Below, one piece after another: positions 1-10,260 of a stretch of 19,015 nucleotides of DNA. Each line of letters starts with the position of its first letter. Position 1 is the stretch's first letter. Source of the DNA: a virus. Lineage: Duplodnaviria; Heunggongvirae; Uroviricota; Caudoviricetes. The notes under the pieces were generated by a model. The model ran no database searches and was not told where the DNA came from. It saw only the letters and a program-made list of their open reading frames with translations. The DNA is taken from IMG/VR virus record IMGVR_UViG_2703718841_000004. One strand, 5' to 3'. The translations under genes and the position numbers were made by a program.

Positions 1-582
1 CGTGTGAACGATAACGTTCCGGGGCCTCTTACGCCGCCACAGCGCCATCTGCAGGGCATCGCAGGCCAGTTGCGCCGTCATGCGTGGCGACATTGACCAG
101 CCAATAACGGCACGTGACCACAGGTCAATGACCACTGCCAGATACAGCCAGCCTTCATCTGTACGTAAGTACGTGATGTCTCCTGCCCACTTCTGGTTCG
201 GGCCACTGGCGTAAAAATCCTGCTCCAACAGATTTTCTGACACAGGCAGGCCGTGTGCGCGGTAGCTGACCGGGCTGAACTTCCGGGAGGCCTTTGCCCT
301 CAGTCCCTGACGGCGCAGGCTTGCCGCCACGGTTTTTACGTTAAAGGGGTAACCCTGAGCACGCAGTTCATCCGTCAGGCGTGGGGCACCGTAACGCTGT
401 TTTGACCGGGTAAAAGCCGCGAGGACAACGCTGTCGCAGTGTTGGCGGAACTGCTGACGCGTGCTTATCCTTGTCCGCCGCTGACACCACGTATACCAGC
501 CGCTGCGGGCCACCCGGAGCACGCGGCACATTGCTTTGATGCTGAACTCAGCCTGATGTTTTTCAATAAAGACATACTTCAT
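1..582 (-). CDS. insF: IS3 transposase OrfB (InsF), 5' part only, truncated by the window edge; normally expressed as an OrfAB fusion by -1 frameshift
   Basis: The reverse complement of 565-582 gives ATG AAG TAT GTC TTT ATT GAA (MKYVFIE) and that of 1-60 gives [20 protein letters not shown], both matching IS3 InsF from memory. It is absent from the ORF track because its stop lies outside the window. Confidence 0.85.
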
Positions 583-887
583 TTCAGGCGCTTCGCGAAG
601 TATGTCGCGGCCTTTTGGAGGATAGCCAGCTCTTCATCCCGTTCTGCCAGCTGGCGTTTGAGACGTGCAATCTCGGTAGACATCTCCAGTTCACGTTCAG
701 AAGACGTCTGCTGATTTTGCTGTTTACTGCGCCAGTTGTAGAGCTGTGATTCATACAGGCTGAGTTCACGGGCTGCGGCAGTAACACCGATGCGTTCAGC
801 AAGCTTCAGGGCTTCACTGCGAAATTCAGGCGAATGCTGTTTACGGGGTTTTTTACTGGTTGATACTGTTTTTGTCATGTGAGTCAC
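579..887 (-). CDS. insE: IS3 transposase OrfA (InsE), HTH DNA-binding subunit
   Basis: The 102-aa translation [35 protein letters not shown]...[17 protein letters not shown] is recognised as IS3 OrfA. Its TGA stop overlaps the orfB ATG (ATGA), as in IS3. Confidence 0.9.
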
Positions 888-1040
888 CTCTGACTGAGAG
901 TTTACTCACTTAGCCGCGTGTCCACTATTGCTGGGTAAGATCAATTATCATCCACACAGGATAAAGACATCTGACCAGATTGCAGTATTAAAAGCTCTCA
1001 TGCAGACTACGCACCCCATATCATATACAAGGTTATACTG

Positions 1041-2286: not shown

Positions 2287-2832
2287 CTACACCACCACGC
2301 GCTCTTTCATCCAGCCATACACGAACGATTCATTAGCCTCACGTTTTTCTGCCAGTTCAAGGTAGCGATCTCCCTGCGTACAGTTTAGCGCTGTCAGAAT
2401 CACCAACTCACCATCCCTGCCACGTTTTGACAAATAGGCGCGTAACGCATTAATGGTACGTGGGCCGATACAACCATCTGCATCAATGTCCGGATACAAC
2501 TCTCCTTTCTGGTTAAATACATTAAGCCAGCGCTGAAGCATTCTGGATGCCACTGACGGCCCCATGTTTACGCCGGTATCACACAATTCAGCAGCGATCT
2601 CCGGAGACAGGCTCGCAACCTTGTGAAAACGTGGCCCGTACCAGTAGTCCGCTTCAAGAATTTCGAGGGCCTGCCCACGCGTCAGGTCACGAATATCCCC
2701 CTGATAACCGTGTGCACGGGCAACTTTTCCAGTAATGCCCCATTTAGTCGGACCACCTTTATCATCAGGGTGGTTGACGTAGCCGCCCTCTTTGCCAAGA
2801 ACAGCATCAAAAATTTCATCTTTCGACTTCAT
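2287..2832 (-). CDS. Endolysin, glycoside hydrolase family 108 N-acetylmuramidase with C-terminal peptidoglycan-binding domain
   Basis: Start taken at the internal ATG (MKSKDEIF...) whose ATG overlaps the stop of the upstream membrane-protein gene. The GH108 signature DAVLGKEGGYVNHPDDKGGPTKWGIT is present. TAG stop at 2287-2289. Confidence 0.75.
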   Translation of the reverse strand: MKSKDEIFDAVLGKEGGYVNHPDDKGGPTKWGITGKVARAHGYQGDIRDLTRGQALEILEADYWYGPRFHKVASLSPEIAAELCDTGVNMGPSVASRMLQRWLNVFNQKGELYPDIDADGCIGPRTINALRAYLSKRGRDGELVILTALNCTQGDRYLELAEKREANESFVYGWMKERVVV

Positions 2833-2833
2833 C

Positions 2834-3112
2834 TCAGCGCCTTCGTAATACAAAGATTTTTGAAACGTTCCCACGAGCACGAACCACCAGCACGCAGAAC
2901 AGCAGGTTAAAAAACACTTCCAGCCAGCCCGTTGCTAACGGGCGACCACACAGATAGCTGAGGGGCGCAAAGGCATACAGCAGCATCAGCAACCAGGCCA
3001 GCCATGACATCAGCGGTTTATGTCTGGAATCACGACGACGATAAAAAAAGAGCGTCAGCACAATAACCGTGCATAACGCCACATTCAGCAATCCGGGAAG
3101 GTTACTTAACAT
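2834..3112 (-). CDS. Small membrane protein of the lysis cassette (antiholin or second holin candidate)
   Basis: 92 aa from the first ATG (MLSNLPGLLNVALCTVIVLTLFF...), preceded by a GGAGG RBS. It has two or three hydrophobic helices and a basic C-terminus (RRR). The ATG overlaps the 3' end of the upstream holin ORF and its stop abuts the endolysin start. Confidence 0.5.
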   Translation of the reverse strand: MLSNLPGLLNVALCTVIVLTLFFYRRRDSRHKPLMSWLAWLLMLLYAFAPLSYLCGRPLATGWLEVFFNLLFCVLVVRARGNVSKIFVLRRR

Positions 3113-3494
3113 TGCCGCCTCCTCCACCCCGCAGGCGGGAGAACAGGCCGGACACCAGCGATGCAATATCCTGCTGGTGGATGAACGAGAGAATCTTCAC
3201 CGACACCACCGCCACCAGCACCGCACACAGAGCATCCGCCGATGTACCGTCATAACCTGTTTTTGATGCAATCCAGGCTGACAGCACATGCGCACCCAGC
3301 ACGCCAACGATAAACGACACCAGAAAATGCGCTGCCACACGCCAGGCAGATAGTGCCTGCGGCATTGTGGCCACAAACAGCGCCCCGGCAAATGCGCCAA
3401 ACACAATCCCGAAATCCGTTCCGGTAAACAGCCCGAATACCGTCGCCCCGCCGAGCGCCGCAGCCGTGCCGGAACCGGATAAGGGTTCAGACAT
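3102..3494 (-). CDS. Putative holin (multi-pass membrane protein, Gly/Ala-rich TM helices)
   Basis: 131 aa from ATG 3494 (MSEPLSGSGTAAALGGATVFGLF...), with an RBS GGAG 7 nt upstream. The ORF-track start further upstream is not an ATG. It is the first gene of a holin/membrane-protein/endolysin arrangement. Confidence 0.55.
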   Translation of the reverse strand: MSEPLSGSGTAAALGGATVFGLFTGTDFGIVFGAFAGALFVATMPQALSAWRVAAHFLVSFIVGVLGAHVLSAWIASKTGYDGTSADALCAVLVAVVSVKILSFIHQQDIASLVSGLFSRLRGGGGGNVK

Positions 3495-3510
3495 ACTTTT
3501 TCTCCTGTAA

Positions 3511-3534
3511 ATAAAAAAGGGCCACTGTCGGCCC
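3511..3534 (-). terminator. Candidate intrinsic terminator immediately upstream of the holin RBS (minus strand)
   Basis: GC stem GGGCC/GGCCC (3519-3523 / 3530-3534) with loop ACTGTC; on the minus strand it is followed by TTTTTTAT (complement of 3511-3518). Confidence 0.4.
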
Positions 3535-3621
3535 GTAAAAAAACAACACCCCGTCAAAGGCACCCGCAGATACCTTTTGTGTGGTGTTATCTGATGTGAT
3601 GTGCGCCGGACGTGGCGCGGA

Positions 3622-3648
3622 TATAAAAAAGGCCCGCCGCAGCGAGCC
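3622..3648 (-). terminator. Candidate intrinsic terminator downstream of the AraC-family gene (minus strand)
   Basis: Imperfect stem GGCCCGC/GCGAGCC with loop CGCA (3631-3648); on the minus strand it is followed by TTTTTTATAT (complement of 3621-3630). Confidence 0.4.
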
Positions 3649-3673
3649 TGTTTTCAATGAGTGCAAAATTCAA

Positions 3674-4417
3674 TTATTCTTGAGTAACACTTAAACTCAT
3701 CTCATTGAATGCAGCCATCCTGTAACCTGCCGGTGTAACACCAAAATAACTCCTGAATACGCTGATAAAATAAGATGTAAAATTATAGCCACACTGAGCA
3801 GCGATTCTGTTGATGGCGCAACGAGATTGATTCAACAGCATTGCTGCCATTCTCATTCTCTCTGTAAGCAACAACTCACTGAAACAGGTGCCTTCTTCTT
3901 TCAGTCTTTTTTTTAACAAACTTTCACTGATACATAACCGCGAAGACACATCTCTCAGAGTCCAGTTTGCTGCAATGTCCGTACGAAACAATGCACTAAG
4001 CCTGTCACTAATATTGCCAATACACGCGGTCAGAAACGACGAAAACATTTTCTCTGATGAGAAAAACGCCAGACACGAAAAGGAAAGCATTTCCGCTAAA
4101 TTGTCCGTATGAATCTTTTCCTCACAAAGATAATCAATCAGGATGCCCATCAATTCTGCCTTGGGAAAACTCACGCAAAGATATCGTGGTATTTGCCGGA
4201 CTAAAACTACATCCTGTTTTTCGTCTCCACACAACAGGTAACGGATAATTGTCGATTCACTGAGACTTATTCGCCGAAAACATTCCGAAAAGGGCAATAA
4301 CGATCCAGCTCCCCCCCTGACAAGAAGTGCACTACCACTTTCCAGAGAGAGCTCTTTTCCTTCAAAGAGCACAACAAACGGGGAATGAACAAAAACAACA
4401 GAACAAGCTTCATTCAT
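3674..4417 (-). CDS. AraC/XylS-family transcriptional regulator, AppY/GadX-like (prophage cargo)
   Basis: 247 aa from the first ATG (MNEACSVVFVH...). The C-terminal dual HTH ...ISESLLKKRLKEEGTCFSELLLTERMRMAAMLLNQSRCAINRIAAQCGYNFTSYFISVFRSYFGVTPAGYR is typical of AraC-family proteins, and the N-terminal CSVVF and overall layout resemble AppY of DLP12 as I recall it. The gene looks AT-rich by eye. Confidence 0.8.
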   Translation of the reverse strand: MNEACSVVFVHSPFVVLFEGKELSLESGSALLVRGGAGSLLPFSECFRRISLSESTIIRYLLCGDEKQDVVLVRQIPRYLCVSFPKAELMGILIDYLCEEKIHTDNLAEMLSFSCLAFFSSEKMFSSFLTACIGNISDRLSALFRTDIAANWTLRDVSSRLCISESLLKKRLKEEGTCFSELLLTERMRMAAMLLNQSRCAINRIAAQCGYNFTSYFISVFRSYFGVTPAGYRMAAFNEMSLSVTQE

Positions 4418-4537
4418 ATCAATTGCCCTGACATTACTGGTCACAAGATAAGTATATATCGATTTACAAAAATACAAGCCGAAAGACCAGTATTAGCAAC
4501 CACCAGCGCGTTTAACGTCCTGTACCGTTTTTCAGGC

Positions 4538-4563
4538 ATAAAAAACCCGCTCAGTGGCGGGTT
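4538..4563 (-). terminator. Intrinsic terminator downstream of the ORF6N gene (minus strand)
   Basis: Stem AACCCGC/GCGGGTT (4544-4550 / 4557-4563) with loop TCAGTG; on the minus strand it is followed by TTTTTAT. Confidence 0.5.
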
Positions 4564-4639
4564 TAAGCTGTTTGGCGTAGTAACCACTCTTAACAGGATA
4601 TTCAACTTTTTACGATCGTAAAGCGTTCGGGGAAAATTT

Positions 4640-5128
4640 TTAAAACCGTTCCAGAGTGCATACCATCGCATCGGCGGGTAGTTTTTCCGTGAAGTCGACC
4701 TGACCGTGTTTATCGAAGTGGATCAGTAATGCGCATCCATCATTTTGGGTTGGGGTGTTTTGTGCTGCTGGTGGTTGTTTTTGGCTGAAATAACAGTCTT
4801 CCAGTTTTTCGAACACTTCCCACGCCTGATCGGTTTCCAGCATTTTGGTGTGACGGGCTGCTCCGCGTTCTGTCCAGAGGATGAGGTGCTTTGTACGCGG
4901 TGCAACTAAGTTACTTTGAGTAACCTTGTTCTTAAATTCCCGCAACTCAGCCCCTTCCAATTTGAAGTAGTGTTTCCCACAAACAAAACGCTCGGCATTG
5001 CGTGTATAGTTCACTTTGATGTTATTAGTTTCGGTGCCATAAAGTTGTGCCAAAAGCTCGGTAGTAATGACAGGGATTTGGTTATGGGTGATCGGGGAAA
5101 GAGTTTCAACTGAGATTTGAATAGCCAT
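4640..5128 (-). CDS. ORF6N-domain (KilA-N/antirepressor-like N-terminal domain) phage protein
   Basis: 162 aa with ATG at 5128 and an RBS AAGGA. The segment ITTELLAQLYGTETNNIKVNYTRNAERFVCGKHYFKLEGAELREFKNK...HLILWTERGAARHTKMLETDQAWEVFEKLED matches the ORF6N pattern from memory. Confidence 0.6.
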   Translation of the reverse strand: MAIQISVETLSPITHNQIPVITTELLAQLYGTETNNIKVNYTRNAERFVCGKHYFKLEGAELREFKNKVTQSNLVAPRTKHLILWTERGAARHTKMLETDQAWEVFEKLEDCYFSQKQPPAAQNTPTQNDGCALLIHFDKHGQVDFTEKLPADAMVCTLERF

Positions 5129-5284
5129 AGGATGATCCTTTTTCTATGTGAATCATCACCACTGCTGACGCCAATCAGTATGGTGGTGAACTGTGCAGGG
5201 TTGGCGTAACCGGGAAAAAGGAACCGGCGCGGATCGCTCCGCCCCCACACAGCCCACCATTGAGATGTGACAGTGCAAACGACA

Positions 5285-5307
5285 ATAAAAAAGACGCTGG
5301 CGCGTCT
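5285..5307 (-). terminator. Candidate tR' (intrinsic terminator downstream of Q and of the putative late promoter)
   Basis: Perfect stem AGACGC/GCGTCT (5292-5297 / 5302-5307) with loop TGGC; on the minus strand it is followed by TTTTTATT. It lies about 95 bp downstream of the Q stop. Confidence 0.5.
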
Positions 5308-5367
5308 GTTGTCGCCTTTTTCATCCGGGACGCCAATCCCGACGCCAGATTTTGCTGGCGCGTGAGG

Positions 5368-5397
5368 AATATAGCCCCGGACAATGTGTCTGGTCAA
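5368..5397 (-). promoter_or_regulatory. Candidate late promoter PR' (sigma70-like -35 TTGACC, 18-bp spacer, -10 TATATT) just downstream of Q
   Basis: The reverse complement of 5392-5397 is TTGACC and that of 5368-5373 is TATATT. The position (5 nt after the Q stop, about 70 nt upstream of the candidate tR') mirrors the lambda PR'-qut-tR' layout. Confidence 0.35.
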
Positions 5398-5401
5398 GCT
5401 C

Positions 5402-5788
5402 CTACATGATTCGTTCTACGTATCTGTCCATCTCCAGTCGGATATCAAGCATCATCAACATGCCATCAATAACCCCTTCCGCTTTCTGCAGGCGCTTGCC
5501 AATACAGGTATCCGAACACCCATGCTTTCGTGCCAACCCCATAAAAGTCATTCCACCTACGTAATAATCCACCAACAAATCGTGCAAATCCTGATTTTTC
5601 TTGTTCAACCGGGCCATACAGCCACAAATTATCATTGCATCATCATCAGAACACTGAGGGCGTGATTTCACTTTCGGCGGGATTAATCCTTTAAAACCAG
5701 CAGCGATTGACGCCCATGACACATCTTCGTGATTGTTCGCAGCCCATGCTCCCCACCGCTCCATAACCTGCTGAATATCACGCACCAT
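5402..5788 (-). CDS. Late-gene antiterminator Q (QuuD/phage 21-82 type)
   Basis: 128 aa from ATG 5788 ([34 protein letters not shown]...), RBS AGGTG, with the zinc-binding segment [16 protein letters not shown]. It resembles DLP12 QuuD as recalled. The start overlaps the rusA stop. Confidence 0.8.
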
Positions 5789-6155
5789 CGTTATCACCTG
5801 TAATTTCGTAAATCTTCACGCCCAACCGCCCACCAGGAACAGGCAGTCCGCGCACAATATTGATTTCATCAAACTGCTCGTCGTCTATAAGTAGTCCGGC
5901 ATGCGTCAGCGCATCCAGTGGTGCCTTCAGGATATTGTCCAGGTCGCGGCGGCGCTTATCCGGTGGCTCTGCAATAATTTTTATTGCCAGCCTTCCGGAC
6001 AGGTTTAATTTCAGTCGCTGCTGGCGAACAATAAGCGCCACATCACGGCGATAACGCTCACCGGCTTTTGATACAAAATATGTGCTGCCACGACGTCGCC
6101 AGTAGGTATTCACCGTCGGCGGGTAAGGCAAAACAAATTCTATGCGTTCAGTCAT
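5778..6155 (-). CDS. rusA: Holliday-junction resolvase RusA
   Basis: 125 aa; the RusA family pattern ...[14 protein letters not shown]...[30 protein letters not shown] is recognised. The ATG at 6155 abuts the upstream stop (TGAATG). Confidence 0.85.
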
Positions 6156-7658: not shown

Positions 7659-7814
7659 TTACTCCTCAGGTTCGTAAGCTGTGAAGACAGCGACCTCCGT
7701 CTGGCCGGTTCGGATTCGTACCTCGCAGAGGTCTTTCCTCGTTACCAGTGCCGTCACTATGACGGTTAAACAGATGACGATCAGGGCGATTAACATCGCC
7801 TTTTGCTGCTTCAT
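7659..7814 (-). CDS. hokD: Hok/Gef-family type I toxin (HokD/RelF-like small membrane toxin)
   Basis: 51 aa, MKQQKAMLIALIVICLTVIVTALVTRKDLCEVRIRTGQTEVAVFTAYEPEE, recognised as HokD/RelF. RBS AAGGAG upstream of ATG 7814. Confidence 0.85.
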   Translation of the reverse strand: MKQQKAMLIALIVICLTVIVTALVTRKDLCEVRIRTGQTEVAVFTAYEPEE

Positions 7815-7871
7815 AGCCTGCTTCTCCTTGCCTTCCGGCACGTAAGAGGCTAACCTACATGTGTCTAGCAT
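7659..7871 (-). CDS. mok: mok (overlapping reading frame whose translation is coupled to hok)
   Basis: 70-aa frame starting at ATG 7871, running in frame into and ending with hok; this is the canonical mok/hok overlap. Confidence 0.5.
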   Translation of the reverse strand: MLDTCRLASYVPEGKEKQAMKQQKAMLIALIVICLTVIVTALVTRKDLCEVRIRTGQTEVAVFTAYEPEE

Positions 7872-7930
7872 GAAATTGGCCTCAGATTAATGTTAAGCGT
7901 CTTGCAGGACGCGTAATGTTAACTGGGGCT
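7863..7930 (+). ncRNA. sok: Candidate Sok antisense RNA (antitoxin) of the hok/sok module
   Basis: Inferred from hok/sok architecture. On the plus strand a possible -35 TTGCCT (7828-7833) and -10 TAACCT (7851-7856) precede the region antisense to the mok start and RBS, with a stem-loop GCGTC-TTGCAG-GACGC at 7907-7922. The boundaries are not established. Confidence 0.25.
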
Positions 7931-8392
7931 TTTCTCTATCTGCCGTTGGTGTTCATGCCCGAGGCAGATAGCCTCAAGCACCCACAGCCATTCTACTTAA
8001 CTACCGTTACCTCGCCAACATGAAATCAATCAGAAAGGCGAACCATAAGAACAATAACAACAATTAAATTCATTTTCTCAAATCCTGTTAACGACGCCCA
8101 TCCGACACTAACAACTTTCATTTATTATACTATTTCCCCATCGACGCTCTGCGTTGGCATAACACAAATCTGTCTGTCCGTTTGGGTAAAGAGCGGATAT
8201 CTGCAGTTTCAAAGAAACTGCGCATGCACACGAACTATCAAAGATAGTGATAACTGAGATAAAAACATATGGAAGCCTTCGGCATTTAAAAATAACAGCA
8301 AATCATATAAAAGGAAAGAGATAAGCAACATTTACATAACATGTATCACGATACGCCCCAGTGTTAATAAAAAGACTATCACTTTATTCTTT

Positions 8393-8448: not shown

Positions 8449-10260
8449 ATGAAGCTACAGCAATTTAATATTAAAAATTACAAGTCGATAAAAGATGAAA
8501 TAGAAGTATATATCGATGATATAGTTGTGCTAATTGGTCCAAATAACTCTGGAAAGTCAACAATATTAGATGCGTATGAAAAGTTTGCATCTTTAGGATC
8601 AGCAAAAGGCCTGACTGCTCATGATTTTTATAACTCAGATATATCTATACCAATTGAAATGTGCGGAATTTTCACTGATATCACTGATGATGATATTCGT
8701 ACATTAGGGGGAGAGAAATGGTTTTATAAAGATGATGCTCTTGACAGAAGAAATATGGCAAGAAAGTATGGGGGAGATTGGGAGAAAAATAATACCCCAT
8801 TGGAAAGCAAACTCTATTATTGTGTTAAATGGGTTTGGTCACATCCAGAAAAAGCAGCCCAAAAACAATCCTATGGCCTTGATGATGCCTCTGGCAAACG
8901 CATATTTATTGATGGGGGCTCTGGGGGACTTGACACACTACTACAAAGTCGAGTTCCTCAACCAATAAGAATAAGCCCAGATAAATCCATGGATGAAACT
9001 AAAAAAATTATCATAAGTTTCTTAAAGGAAGATGCAAAAGATGAGTTACTGAAAACAGGGGAAAGTAAAGCTGATATAATACAGAAAATACAAGAGTTGA
9101 CAGACACTCTTATGAAAGATTCCAAATCAAAAATCGATGATCTTCTACAGCAGGTCTCCAAATCATCATCATCTGTTTTTCCTGGGCTAGAACTGGAATT
9201 AAACATACTTTCCAAGGATCCCGTAGATGCGGATGTTATGGTTTCAGAATCTAACCTTACAGTGAAAATGGATGGGATAAATAGCTCTCTTCTCGAGAAC
9301 CAAGGTCACGGTGTTCGCCGCTCCGTTTTATGGTCTGCTTTGCAAATTTTGACTCACGAATCTCATGCACGAGATAAAATAAAAAAAGCGAAAGGTAAGC
9401 CTATCTCTGTTGAGAAAAAACAATATATTTTATTGATTGATGAGCCTGAATCATTTCTTCACCCTCCTATAATTAGAAGTGCGAGGGACTCGCTTTATGA
9501 TTTTGCAGCAAACAATGATAACTGGCAGGTGATGGCTACAACACACTCCCCTGTATTCATAGACTTATCCAAGAAGCACACGACTATAATTAGGATAGAA
9601 AAAGACAAATCGCTAAATAAAACAATATCTACAGATGAACTATCTTTTTCTGAAGAGGAAAAAGATAATATGAAAATGATAAGATTATGCAACCCAATGG
9701 TTAATGAGTTTTTCTTTTACGACAATATAATATTAGTTGAAGGCCCAACTGAAAAAATCGTCATTAACAAAATATGTGATATTGTCGGAGTTGATTATCA
9801 TATCATTGACTGTTTAGGAAAAGGGAATATAAAAACATTTGCTAAAATATTAAATCAATTTAACGTTGAGTATATAGCAGTACATGACTCCGACATTCCA
9901 AAATGCTTAAAGCAAGGAAGCGTTTCAGGTAATGGGGCATGGGGTTCAAATGTATCCATAATGAACGAATGCTCTAAAAGTAAAAAACCAATGGTATTTA
10001 TTCAAATACCTCATTTCGAAGGACTGTTTTTTAAAAATTTCAATCCATCAAACAAAGTTGAGACAGTAACATCAGTTCTATCTAATAATTTAACACCAGA
10101 ATACAAAGCAATATTTGATACATATAGCAGAATTTTAAACAAAGATCCATCTGTTTTTATCAGCTCCAACGAAAAAATGATAGACATGTATCATGCATTT
10201 TATGCCAGTAATAAAAACCAAATTGAGACGCTAAAGAATCCTGAAATCTGGATCCTTTAA
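8449..10260 (+). CDS. OLD-family nuclease-type protein: N-terminal ABC/SMC-like ATPase with coiled-coil insert plus C-terminal Toprim domain (class 1 OLD-like or fused PARIS-like); candidate anti-phage defence gene
   Basis: 603 aa. Walker A GPNNSGKST (aa 30-38, nt 8536-8562), coiled-coil insert about aa 180-240, Walker B ILLIDEPE (aa 327-334, nt 9427-9450), H-loop ATTHSP (aa 363-368), Toprim glutamate in ILVEGPTE (E431, nt 9739-9741), conserved Gly in CLGKG, and DxD in VHDSDIP (aa 480-482, nt 9886-9894). RBS AAGGA 8 nt upstream and a clean terminator downstream. It is plus-strand in a minus-strand neighbourhood and visibly AT-rich. Confidence 0.75.
   Translation: MKLQQFNIKNYKSIKDEIEVYIDDIVVLIGPNNSGKSTILDAYEKFASLGSAKGLTAHDFYNSDISIPIEMCGIFTDITDDDIRTLGGEKWFYKDDALDRRNMARKYGGDWEKNNTPLESKLYYCVKWVWSHPEKAAQKQSYGLDDASGKRIFIDGGSGGLDTLLQSRVPQPIRISPDKSMDETKKIIISFLKEDAKDELLKTGESKADIIQKIQELTDTLMKDSKSKIDDLLQQVSKSSSSVFPGLELELNILSKDPVDADVMVSESNLTVKMDGINSSLLENQGHGVRRSVLWSALQILTHESHARDKIKKAKGKPISVEKKQYILLIDEPESFLHPPIIRSARDSLYDFAANNDNWQVMATTHSPVFIDLSKKHTTIIRIEKDKSLNKTISTDELSFSEEEKDNMKMIRLCNPMVNEFFFYDNIILVEGPTEKIVINKICDIVGVDYHIIDCLGKGNIKTFAKILNQFNVEYIAVHDSDIPKCLKQGSVSGNGAWGSNVSIMNECSKSKKPMVFIQIPHFEGLFFKNFNPSNKVETVTSVLSNNLTPEYKAIFDTYSRILNKDPSVFISSNEKMIDMYHAFYASNKNQIETLKNPEIWIL

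Follow-up and report, generated by a model that had tools for sequence, protein, structure and literature searches.

The question raised by this locus is why a bacteriophage carries a gene for an AraC-family transcription regulator just ahead of its lysis genes. The gene lies at positions 3674–4417, on the minus strand, of a stretch of 19,015 nucleotides from the IMG/VR virus record IMGVR_UViG_2703718841_000004 (Caudoviricetes); this whole stretch is referred to as the window, and the product of the gene as the regulator. An earlier inspection of the letters alone, here the original prediction, had proposed that the gene is cargo between the Q antiterminator gene and the holin gene, that its product resembles AppY and GadX, and that it is a candidate lysogenic-conversion factor. 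We find a regulator that is intact, that forms a lineage of its own, that is carried in an exchangeable cassette, and that probably acts on host promoters.

The open reading frame (ORF), on the minus strand, extends from an ATG at 4417 to a stop codon at 3674–3676, giving a coding sequence of 744 bp and a product of 247 amino acid residues. The product is identical to RefSeq WP_001345622.1, named only “helix-turn-helix domain-containing protein”, for which the same 744-bp coding sequence is used, and identical copies are present in other strains. A longer mechanical ORF starts at a TTG at 4477, but it was dropped, as no homologue matches the 20 residues that it adds. The ATG at 4417 was therefore taken as the start, since the 20-residue extension is unmatched, the relatives begin with the motif M-x3-CSV, and RefSeq uses the same coding sequence. 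The RefSeq annotation of this gene varies between genomes. The annotations in strains C5 and O139:H1 W13-16 carry long extensions at the N-terminus (852 and 921 bp), and the 308-residue protein cluster P0002 is likewise an N-terminally extended annotation of the regulator; these long versions arise because the frame upstream of the equivalent of the ATG at 4417 stays open.

The assignment to the AraC family was borne out. Both Pfam families that describe the double helix-turn-helix (HTH) domain match above their cut-offs, HTH_18 at 51.6 bits (cut-off 33.6; profile positions 2–78 of 80) and HTH_AraC at 49.9 bits (cut-off 26.6) in two stretches, and the matches fall in residues 158–233. An AlphaFold model, built on an alignment of 45 sequences, has a mean predicted local distance difference test score (pLDDT) of 88.3 and a predicted template modelling score (pTM) of 0.70. 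In the model, a helical linker joins a β-rich N-terminal domain to a double-HTH DNA-binding domain at the C-terminus (Table 1). The modelled DNA-binding domain superimposes on the crystal structure of GadX (3mkl) with a template modelling (TM) score of 0.90–0.92 and a root-mean-square deviation (rmsd) of 0.9–1.1 Å, and it also matches the DNA-binding domains of MarA, SoxS and AraC. The best full-length Foldseek matches of the model are Rns, CsvR and ToxT (E 8e-12 to 5e-8). These virulence activators have the same two-domain plan, a β-rich N-terminus followed by a double HTH, and are also found by sequence (E ~2e-17); they differ from the regulator in that identity is ~20% and the domain orientation in the model is different or uncertain (overall rmsd ~16 Å, TM 0.42). 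Judged by its sequence and its predicted structure, the regulator is an intact two-domain AraC/XylS-family transcription factor, including the N-terminal companion domain. The possibility that the protein is truncated, or that its HTH is disrupted, is not borne out: at 247 residues the protein is full length, and both HTH motifs are intact in the alignment and in the model. A PADLOC scan for defence systems gave no match to the regulator.

To which branch of the family does the regulator belong? The reference proteins for the BLASTP comparisons were taken from E. coli MG1655 and from O157:H7 Sakai. Full-length alignments, extending over residues 1–232, were obtained for GadW (36% identity over 242 residues; E 4.5e-48), YdeO (36.5% over 230 residues; E 4e-46), AppY (30.5% over 233 residues; E 2e-36), PsrA, the product of ecs1087 taken from what is likely its true start (35% over 232 residues), and ECs_0287 (39% over 234 residues, the highest value among the named relatives). 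ECs_0287 is the sole AraC-like gene in the Sakai prophage Sp1 (OI-8), from which we infer that it is PatE (z0321, OI-8), and we refer to it as the presumed PatE. Shorter matches were found for GadX and EnvY (40% and 39% identity, respectively, both in the C-terminal half only) and for YbcM (32%, in the HTH region only). The aligned members of the clade all begin with M-x3-CSV. Identity is unevenly spread along the protein: it is 42–50% in the DNA-binding domain and 15–32% in the N-terminal domain, PsrA, for example, having 47% and 27%, respectively, and the presumed PatE also having 47% in the DNA-binding domain. The best-conserved segments are the two recognition helices, for example SESLLKKRLKEEG and TSYFISVFRSYFG, which are 54–85% identical to those of eight aligned relatives.

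Among the NCBIfam models the best match is YdeO (NF007407), with 146.9 bits against a cut-off of 348 and with model positions 2–228 of 253 aligned; the GadX model (NF007432) gives 98.1 bits against a cut-off of 500, in the C-terminal half only. Orthology to AppY, YdeO or GadX was ruled out by the identities of 30–40% and by NCBIfam scores far under the equivalog cut-offs. The original description of the regulator as like AppY and GadX thus stands at the level of the clade, but among the full-length relatives AppY is the farthest removed, and YdeO, GadW, the presumed PatE and PsrA are all closer. The regulator is homologous to each of AppY, GadX, GadW, YdeO and the regulators of enterohaemorrhagic E. 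coli (EHEC) with which the original prediction had suggested a comparison, and it is an orthologue of none. A few E. coli clusters, at 75–86% identity, make up its own lineage, the next relatives being at ~40%; the wider clade, as recovered by a profile search, is nearly all in E. coli and its close relatives and bears generic names only. From these comparisons, the regulator belongs to the enterobacterial clade of YdeO, GadW, GadX, AppY, PsrA and PatE and represents a distinct lineage that is confined to E. coli. It is, on the same alignments, a new lineage, as yet uncharacterised, in the well-known class of prophage regulators that includes PsrA, PatE and AppY.

The second question is whether the gene is cargo. 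It is part of a cassette of ~0.92 kb, at ~3650–4566, in an E. coli lambdoid prophage; the cassette lies in late-gene orientation directly before the holin genes and has a hairpin terminator on each flank. The GC content of the regulator gene is 41.7% (39.5% at third codon positions), compared with 46–59% in the neighbouring phage genes (Q, 47.0%; holins, 50–59%; endolysin, 50.7%; DUF968 gene, 52.7%). In strains EC11, CEA224S, C5 and O139:H1 W13-16, the cassette precedes the same pair of holin genes but follows four different Q proteins, and the genes between Q and the cassette in these four strains are an ORF6N gene, nothing, a MazF toxin gene or a DUF6731 gene. Homology across these contexts begins at the upstream hairpin (4564–4540) and runs on through the hairpin at 3649 into the holin gene. 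Conversely, the prophages of strains E24377A and E9 share these holins and their leader, including the hairpin at 3649–3630, but lack the regulator gene; there, the slot upstream of the hairpin is filled by transfer RNA (tRNA) genes and a DNA methyltransferase gene, and in E9 the hairpin carries a compensatory change in its stem. These arrangements indicate that the regulator gene is an exchangeable cargo gene, or “moron”, in the slot from Q to the lysis genes, and that it is dispensable for phage functions. The cargo status that had been proposed is therefore upheld, both by the relatives that share the holin cassette and by the GC comparison. The slot itself needs a qualification. The regulator gene does lie between Q and the holin genes, in late orientation, but it is not adjacent to Q, from which it is separated by an isrK/C4/ORF6N cassette (4640–5374) and a further terminator.

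In O139:H1 W13-16, which carries the pig allele described below, a 770-bp insert with a tRNA-Gly gene and a terminator of its own lies between the regulator stop codon and the holin-leader hairpin. The tRNA-side sequence of this insert is also present in the AraC-less prophage of E24377A, an indication of modular shuffling at this junction.

The two hairpins that bound the cassette differ in their relation to it. The upstream hairpin (4538–4564) ends the isrK–ORF6N unit and forms the upstream edge of the conserved regulator cassette; a terminator is also called at this point in strain CEA224S. The downstream hairpin had been described as the regulator’s own terminator, at 3622–3648. A hairpin at 3649–3620 is real: its stem (3649..3630) has 8 pairs, 6 of them G–C, with a folding energy of −19.2 kcal/mol and a modest z of −1.78 relative to shuffled sequences. 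It is not private to the regulator, however, because the AraC-less prophages keep it as the start of the conserved holin leader, and it is thus shared as part of the lysis leader. A second terminator-like hairpin (3513–3534), close to the holin gene, is kept in all aligned prophages, although its folding energy is the same as that of shuffled sequences (z +0.21). The presence of two terminators directly before the lysis genes could reflect a strict dependence on Q, as one possibility. The locus thus displays a slot between Q and the holin gene in which cargo is swapped at fixed terminator hairpins.

The holin leader of 155 nt (3495–3649), with both hairpins (3649–3630 and 3534–3519), is kept irrespective of the cargo upstream of it, in several hundred prophages of E. 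coli. Homology breakpoints within the leader cluster at ~3590, 3621 and 3643–3648.

The 122-nt 5′ region of the cassette (4418–4539) is kept across the four different upstream contexts, and a promoter of the regulator gene is presumed to lie in it, although neither a consensus nor a relaxed scan yielded a convincing sigma-70 site. The relaxed scan returned only weak candidates with non-optimal spacing, TTGTAT-15-TATACT (4477..4451) and TTGCTA-19-TATTTT (4499..4469). Between alleles, the 60 nt upstream of the gene are conserved no better than the coding sequence, at ~90.5% identity, by a hand count on the alignment, compared with 90.7%.

The regulator gene was found in 65 of 5426 complete E. 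coli genomes. Alleles with at least 98% identity (42 genomes) are mostly from cattle, buffalo, sheep meat and farm environments and from non-O157 Shiga toxin-producing E. coli (STEC), with a few carriers from humans and wildlife, whereas an allele at 91.6% identity (23 genomes) was found only in pig isolates of enterotoxigenic E. coli (ETEC) or O139 and in feral pig or wild boar isolates; the host associations were read from sample labels and are not a statistical test. Comparison of the 100% and 91% alleles gives a ratio of nonsynonymous to synonymous substitution rates (dN/dS) of 0.30 for the whole gene, the DNA-binding domain having 0.22 and the N-terminal domain 0.43; by these values the regulator is under purifying selection. 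In a phage collection, no record was above ~40% identity to the regulator; the allele is therefore unrepresented among sequenced free phages.

What, then, does the regulator do? The reading that we favour, and on balance think probable given the analogy with its relatives, is that it is an active, host-directed regulator, carried as cargo, that activates loci silenced by H-NS, most likely gadE and hdeA. Under this proposal, Q-modified polymerase that starts at a promoter downstream of Q would cross the regulator gene before it reaches the holin genes, and the regulator gene would be a de facto late gene. Since a consensus promoter scan between the regulator and holin genes found none, lysis transcription would have to start upstream of the regulator gene, and the regulator would be made during lytic growth because Q-modified polymerase bound for the holin genes must transcribe it. 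In a lysogen, the flanking terminators would insulate the gene, and its expression would come either from a weak promoter, probably H-NS-silenced, within the 122 nt upstream of it, or from transcription that reads through the isrK–ORF6N unit. As homology suggests, the protein would use its two HTH motifs to bind AT-rich sites and would activate or de-silence host promoters, with gadE and hdeA of the acid-fitness island as the best guess. The divergent N-terminal domain may set an input signal or a partner of its own. The choice of targets follows the relatives: gadE and hdeA are activated directly by PatE and PsrB, and PsrA acts by way of GadE when it represses type III secretion (reviewed in PMC10877973); AppY directly targets gadE and has pleiotropic targets beyond acid resistance (PMC10057817). 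At hdeA, PatE and PsrB bind an element from −132 to −45. We infer lysogenic conversion and coupling to the late promoter, both anticipated in the original prediction, from this architecture and homology.

Several points weigh against this proposal. A consensus sigma-70 scan found no match in 4418–4564. The identity to every characterised relative is only 30–39%, with 15–32% in the N-terminal domain, and the transfer of targets from these relatives is a guess because the equivalog cut-offs for YdeO and GadX are missed widely. A literature search for WP_001345622.1 found no mention of it, and the sources name the protein generically. Finally, truncated or split copies exist (clusters P0006–P0011; strains C7 and C3), and the gene is therefore dispensable.

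The same points bear on the alternatives. The low identity of the N-terminal domain to the regulators of the Gad circuit would fit a regulator that is active on the host but has its regulon outside the acid-fitness island, for example anaerobic and energy genes, as for AppY, adhesin or virulence genes, as for Rns, CsvR and ToxT, or other H-NS-silenced loci. The pleiotropic targets of AppY (PMC10057817), the virulence activators at the top of the full-length structural matches, and carriers that are mostly livestock isolates independent of the enterocyte effacement locus (LEE) all point the same way. We think this less likely, however, for the nearest proteins by sequence (YdeO, GadW, the presumed PatE and PsrA) all converge on gadE and hdeA, and the helices that contact DNA are the best-conserved part of the protein. 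That the gene is instead a silent passenger, silenced by H-NS, insulated by terminators, without a current role and drifting to loss, seems unlikely to us. Its rarity among complete genomes, the truncated forms, the terminators on both sides and the failure to find a consensus promoter are as expected for such a gene, but many unrelated strains carry an identical, intact ORF, the dN/dS values are low, above all in the DNA-binding domain, and the cassette has been retained on at least four prophage backbones and as two host-associated alleles.

A role in the service of the phage itself, such as the tuning of lysis or late genes or the control of superinfection, might be read from the location of the gene inside the late transcription unit and from the fact that the same holin pair always follows it, regardless of the type of Q. 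Yet any insertion at this junction would show such linkage, no characterised member of the clade regulates phage genes, and the same holin cassette and leader exist without the regulator, so that lysis is independent of the gene; we consider such a role improbable. Returning to a host-directed regulator, one may also ask where its transcription in a lysogen begins. In Gifsy-1, read-through from isrK turns on the antirepressor and Q. By analogy, read-through from a constitutive isrK promoter, rather than a promoter of its own, might gate the expression of the regulator in lysogens, so that a small RNA (sRNA) switch would feed a host regulon; we think there is little chance of this. If true, a phage sRNA switch would pre-adapt or reprogram cells near induction through a stress or acid-resistance regulon.

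A characterised precedent for the position is psrA of EHEC O157:H7. PsrA and PsrB (ecs1087 in Sakai Sp4; z1789 and z2104 in EDL933) are prophage-borne AraC/XylS regulators, and PsrA, of similar size (237 residues from the likely true start), is a full-length homologue that shares the N-terminal CSV motif with the regulator. In Sakai Sp4, psrA is in the same slot, after a DUF968–RusA–Q trio that matches the one here and before tRNA genes and the lysis genes. The setting differs in that tRNA genes follow psrA, the holin gene is distant and the prophage bears effector and pch genes, whereas here the regulator gene abuts the holin leader. The functions of PsrA and PsrB have been established by experiment (PMC10877973), whereas the regulator is known from sequence, mostly from non-O157 livestock strains. 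The presumed PatE is also prophage-borne and also has 247 residues, but its gene is at the end of the degraded Sp1 prophage, after tail-fibre genes and outside the Q-to-lysis slot, and it belongs to the lineage of cluster P0012 and the mEp332 group (55% identity). AppY, a prophage-borne AraC/XylS regulator of 249 residues with the same N-terminal motif, is encoded at the far end of DLP12, after tail-fibre remnants. YdeO, GadW and GadX of K-12 differ from the regulator in being encoded by chromosomal core or island genes under the control of EvgA, RpoS and GadY.

Homologues at 31–40% identity, of other lineages, are carried by the functional lambdoid phages 1H12 (gp67), the Lambda_ev series, mEp332, PhiR70_1, ev099 and phiSTEC1575-Stx2k. 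In the functional phage 1H12, a homologue with 37% identity lies directly upstream of the holin gene and downstream of Q and other cargo. The mEp332 homologue, unlike the regulator gene here, is at the tail-fibre end of the genome.

The clade that includes PsrA, PsrB, PatE and AppY is an established phage input to the acid-resistance and virulence circuitry of the host. A livestock-linked lineage, present in ~1% of complete E. coli genomes, could aid gut passage or persistence in reservoirs. Neither this livestock role nor the slot exchange alters current understanding.

The order of features on the minus strand is hok/sok, DUF968, RusA, Q, a promoter-like site, IsrK, the C4 RNA, the ORF6N gene, the upstream hairpin, the 122-nt 5′ region, the regulator gene, the two downstream hairpins, the two holin genes and the GH108 endolysin gene (Table 1).

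Table 1. Features from Q to the endolysin gene, in the order of transcription, with the modelled domains of the regulator.
Feature	Position	Strand	Details
Q antiterminator (Phage_antitermQ)	5402–5797	minus	Pfam E 2.5e-52
Promoter-like site TTGACC-18-TATATT	5368–5397	minus	directly after Q; 7 nt before IsrK 5′ end
c4-a1b1 element	5322–5374	minus	Rfam, above gathering score
IsrK sRNA	5287–5361	minus	Rfam 79 bits, above gathering score; ends in terminator 5307..5292
C4 antisense RNA	5179–5264	minus	Rfam 74 bits, above gathering score
ORF6N-domain gene, antirepressor-like (AnrP-type)	4640–5128	minus	162 residues; Pfam E 3.2e-21
Upstream hairpin terminator	4538–4564	minus	AAACCCGC-CACTGA-GCGGGTTT + T run; −15.7 kcal/mol
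5′ region of cassette	4418–4539	minus	122 nt; Shine–Dalgarno-like AGGG 9–12 nt before ATG
Regulator gene	3674–4417	minus	247 residues
Regulator, N-terminal β-rich domain	residues ~1–85		strands at 3–53 and 79–83; AlphaFold model
Regulator, helical linker	residues 87–131		AlphaFold model
Regulator, C-terminal double-HTH DNA-binding domain	residues ~136–235		seven helices; helices 136–245 at pLDDT ~90–98
Downstream hairpin terminator	3620–3649	minus	AGGCTCGC-TGCG-GCGGGCCT then TTTTTTAT; 24 nt past stop
Second terminator-like hairpin	3513–3534	minus	GGGCCG-ACAG-TGGCCC + TTTTTT; just before holin Shine–Dalgarno, ATG 3494
Holin (Phage_holin_8), first lysis gene	3102–3494	minus	Pfam E 8.2e-23; RefSeq “putative holin”
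Second holin (Phage_holin_3_7)	2834–3112	minus	Pfam E 3.2e-21
GH108/PG_binding_3 endolysin	2287–2832	minus	Pfam

The promoter-like site after Q is the lone consensus promoter match in 2800–5900, and it fits a start at 5361, as in the isrK model; we presume that it is PisrK or the late promoter. IsrK seems to take the place of the short pR′–tR′ transcript. The stretch from Q to the ORF6N gene repeats the antQ–isrK–anrP organisation of Gifsy-1, in which the order is antQ–isrK–orf45–anrP(–isrJ)–lysis genes and the isrK promoter drives a 77-nt sRNA and a read-through mRNA of ~900 nt (PMC4825925). The isrK/C4/ORF6N region also resembles a P1 immI-like module. An IsrJ homologue was sought at 4540–4640 by analogy with Gifsy-1, and no Rfam match to it was found there even at E up to 1; weak matches to rsmX, TarB, STnc100 and the Trp leader in the same interval were rejected as chance, driven by the terminator. 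In the near-identical strain EC11, the equivalent of the ORF6N gene is called a pseudogene by PGAP, with its C-terminus missing, and the ORF6N protein has weak PADLOC matches to PDC-S05 (E ~1e-9). No tRNA genes, such as those in the Sp4, O139 and E24377A slots, were found in the window, and between the endolysin gene and bor no spanin of the Rz/Rz1 type is annotated or obvious (1041–2286).

Other features of the window lie outside this region. A hok/sok type I toxin–antitoxin locus is on the minus strand at 7659–7983, with a Hok-family ORF at 7659–7871, in which the Hok sequence begins at an internal Met, and a sok RNA at 7809–7983 (Rfam 114 bits). At 8449–10260, on the plus strand, an OLD-family ATP-dependent nuclease of 603 residues is encoded (PADLOC “Old”, E 3.4e-73; weaker matches to AriA and GajA). 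Its gene is in an island of 28–39% GC, on the strand opposite to the phage genes, and in related prophages, e.g., that of EC11, other genes are found there; the predicted nuclease is probably anti-phage defence cargo. After the endolysin gene, Bor (1676–1969) and a DUF1398/YbcV-like protein (1041–1451) are encoded on the opposite strand. The left end of the window (1–900) is part of an IS3-family element, with an orfA-like ORF at 579–887, and in EC11 an IS3-family element lies between the DUF1398 gene and the terminase genes.

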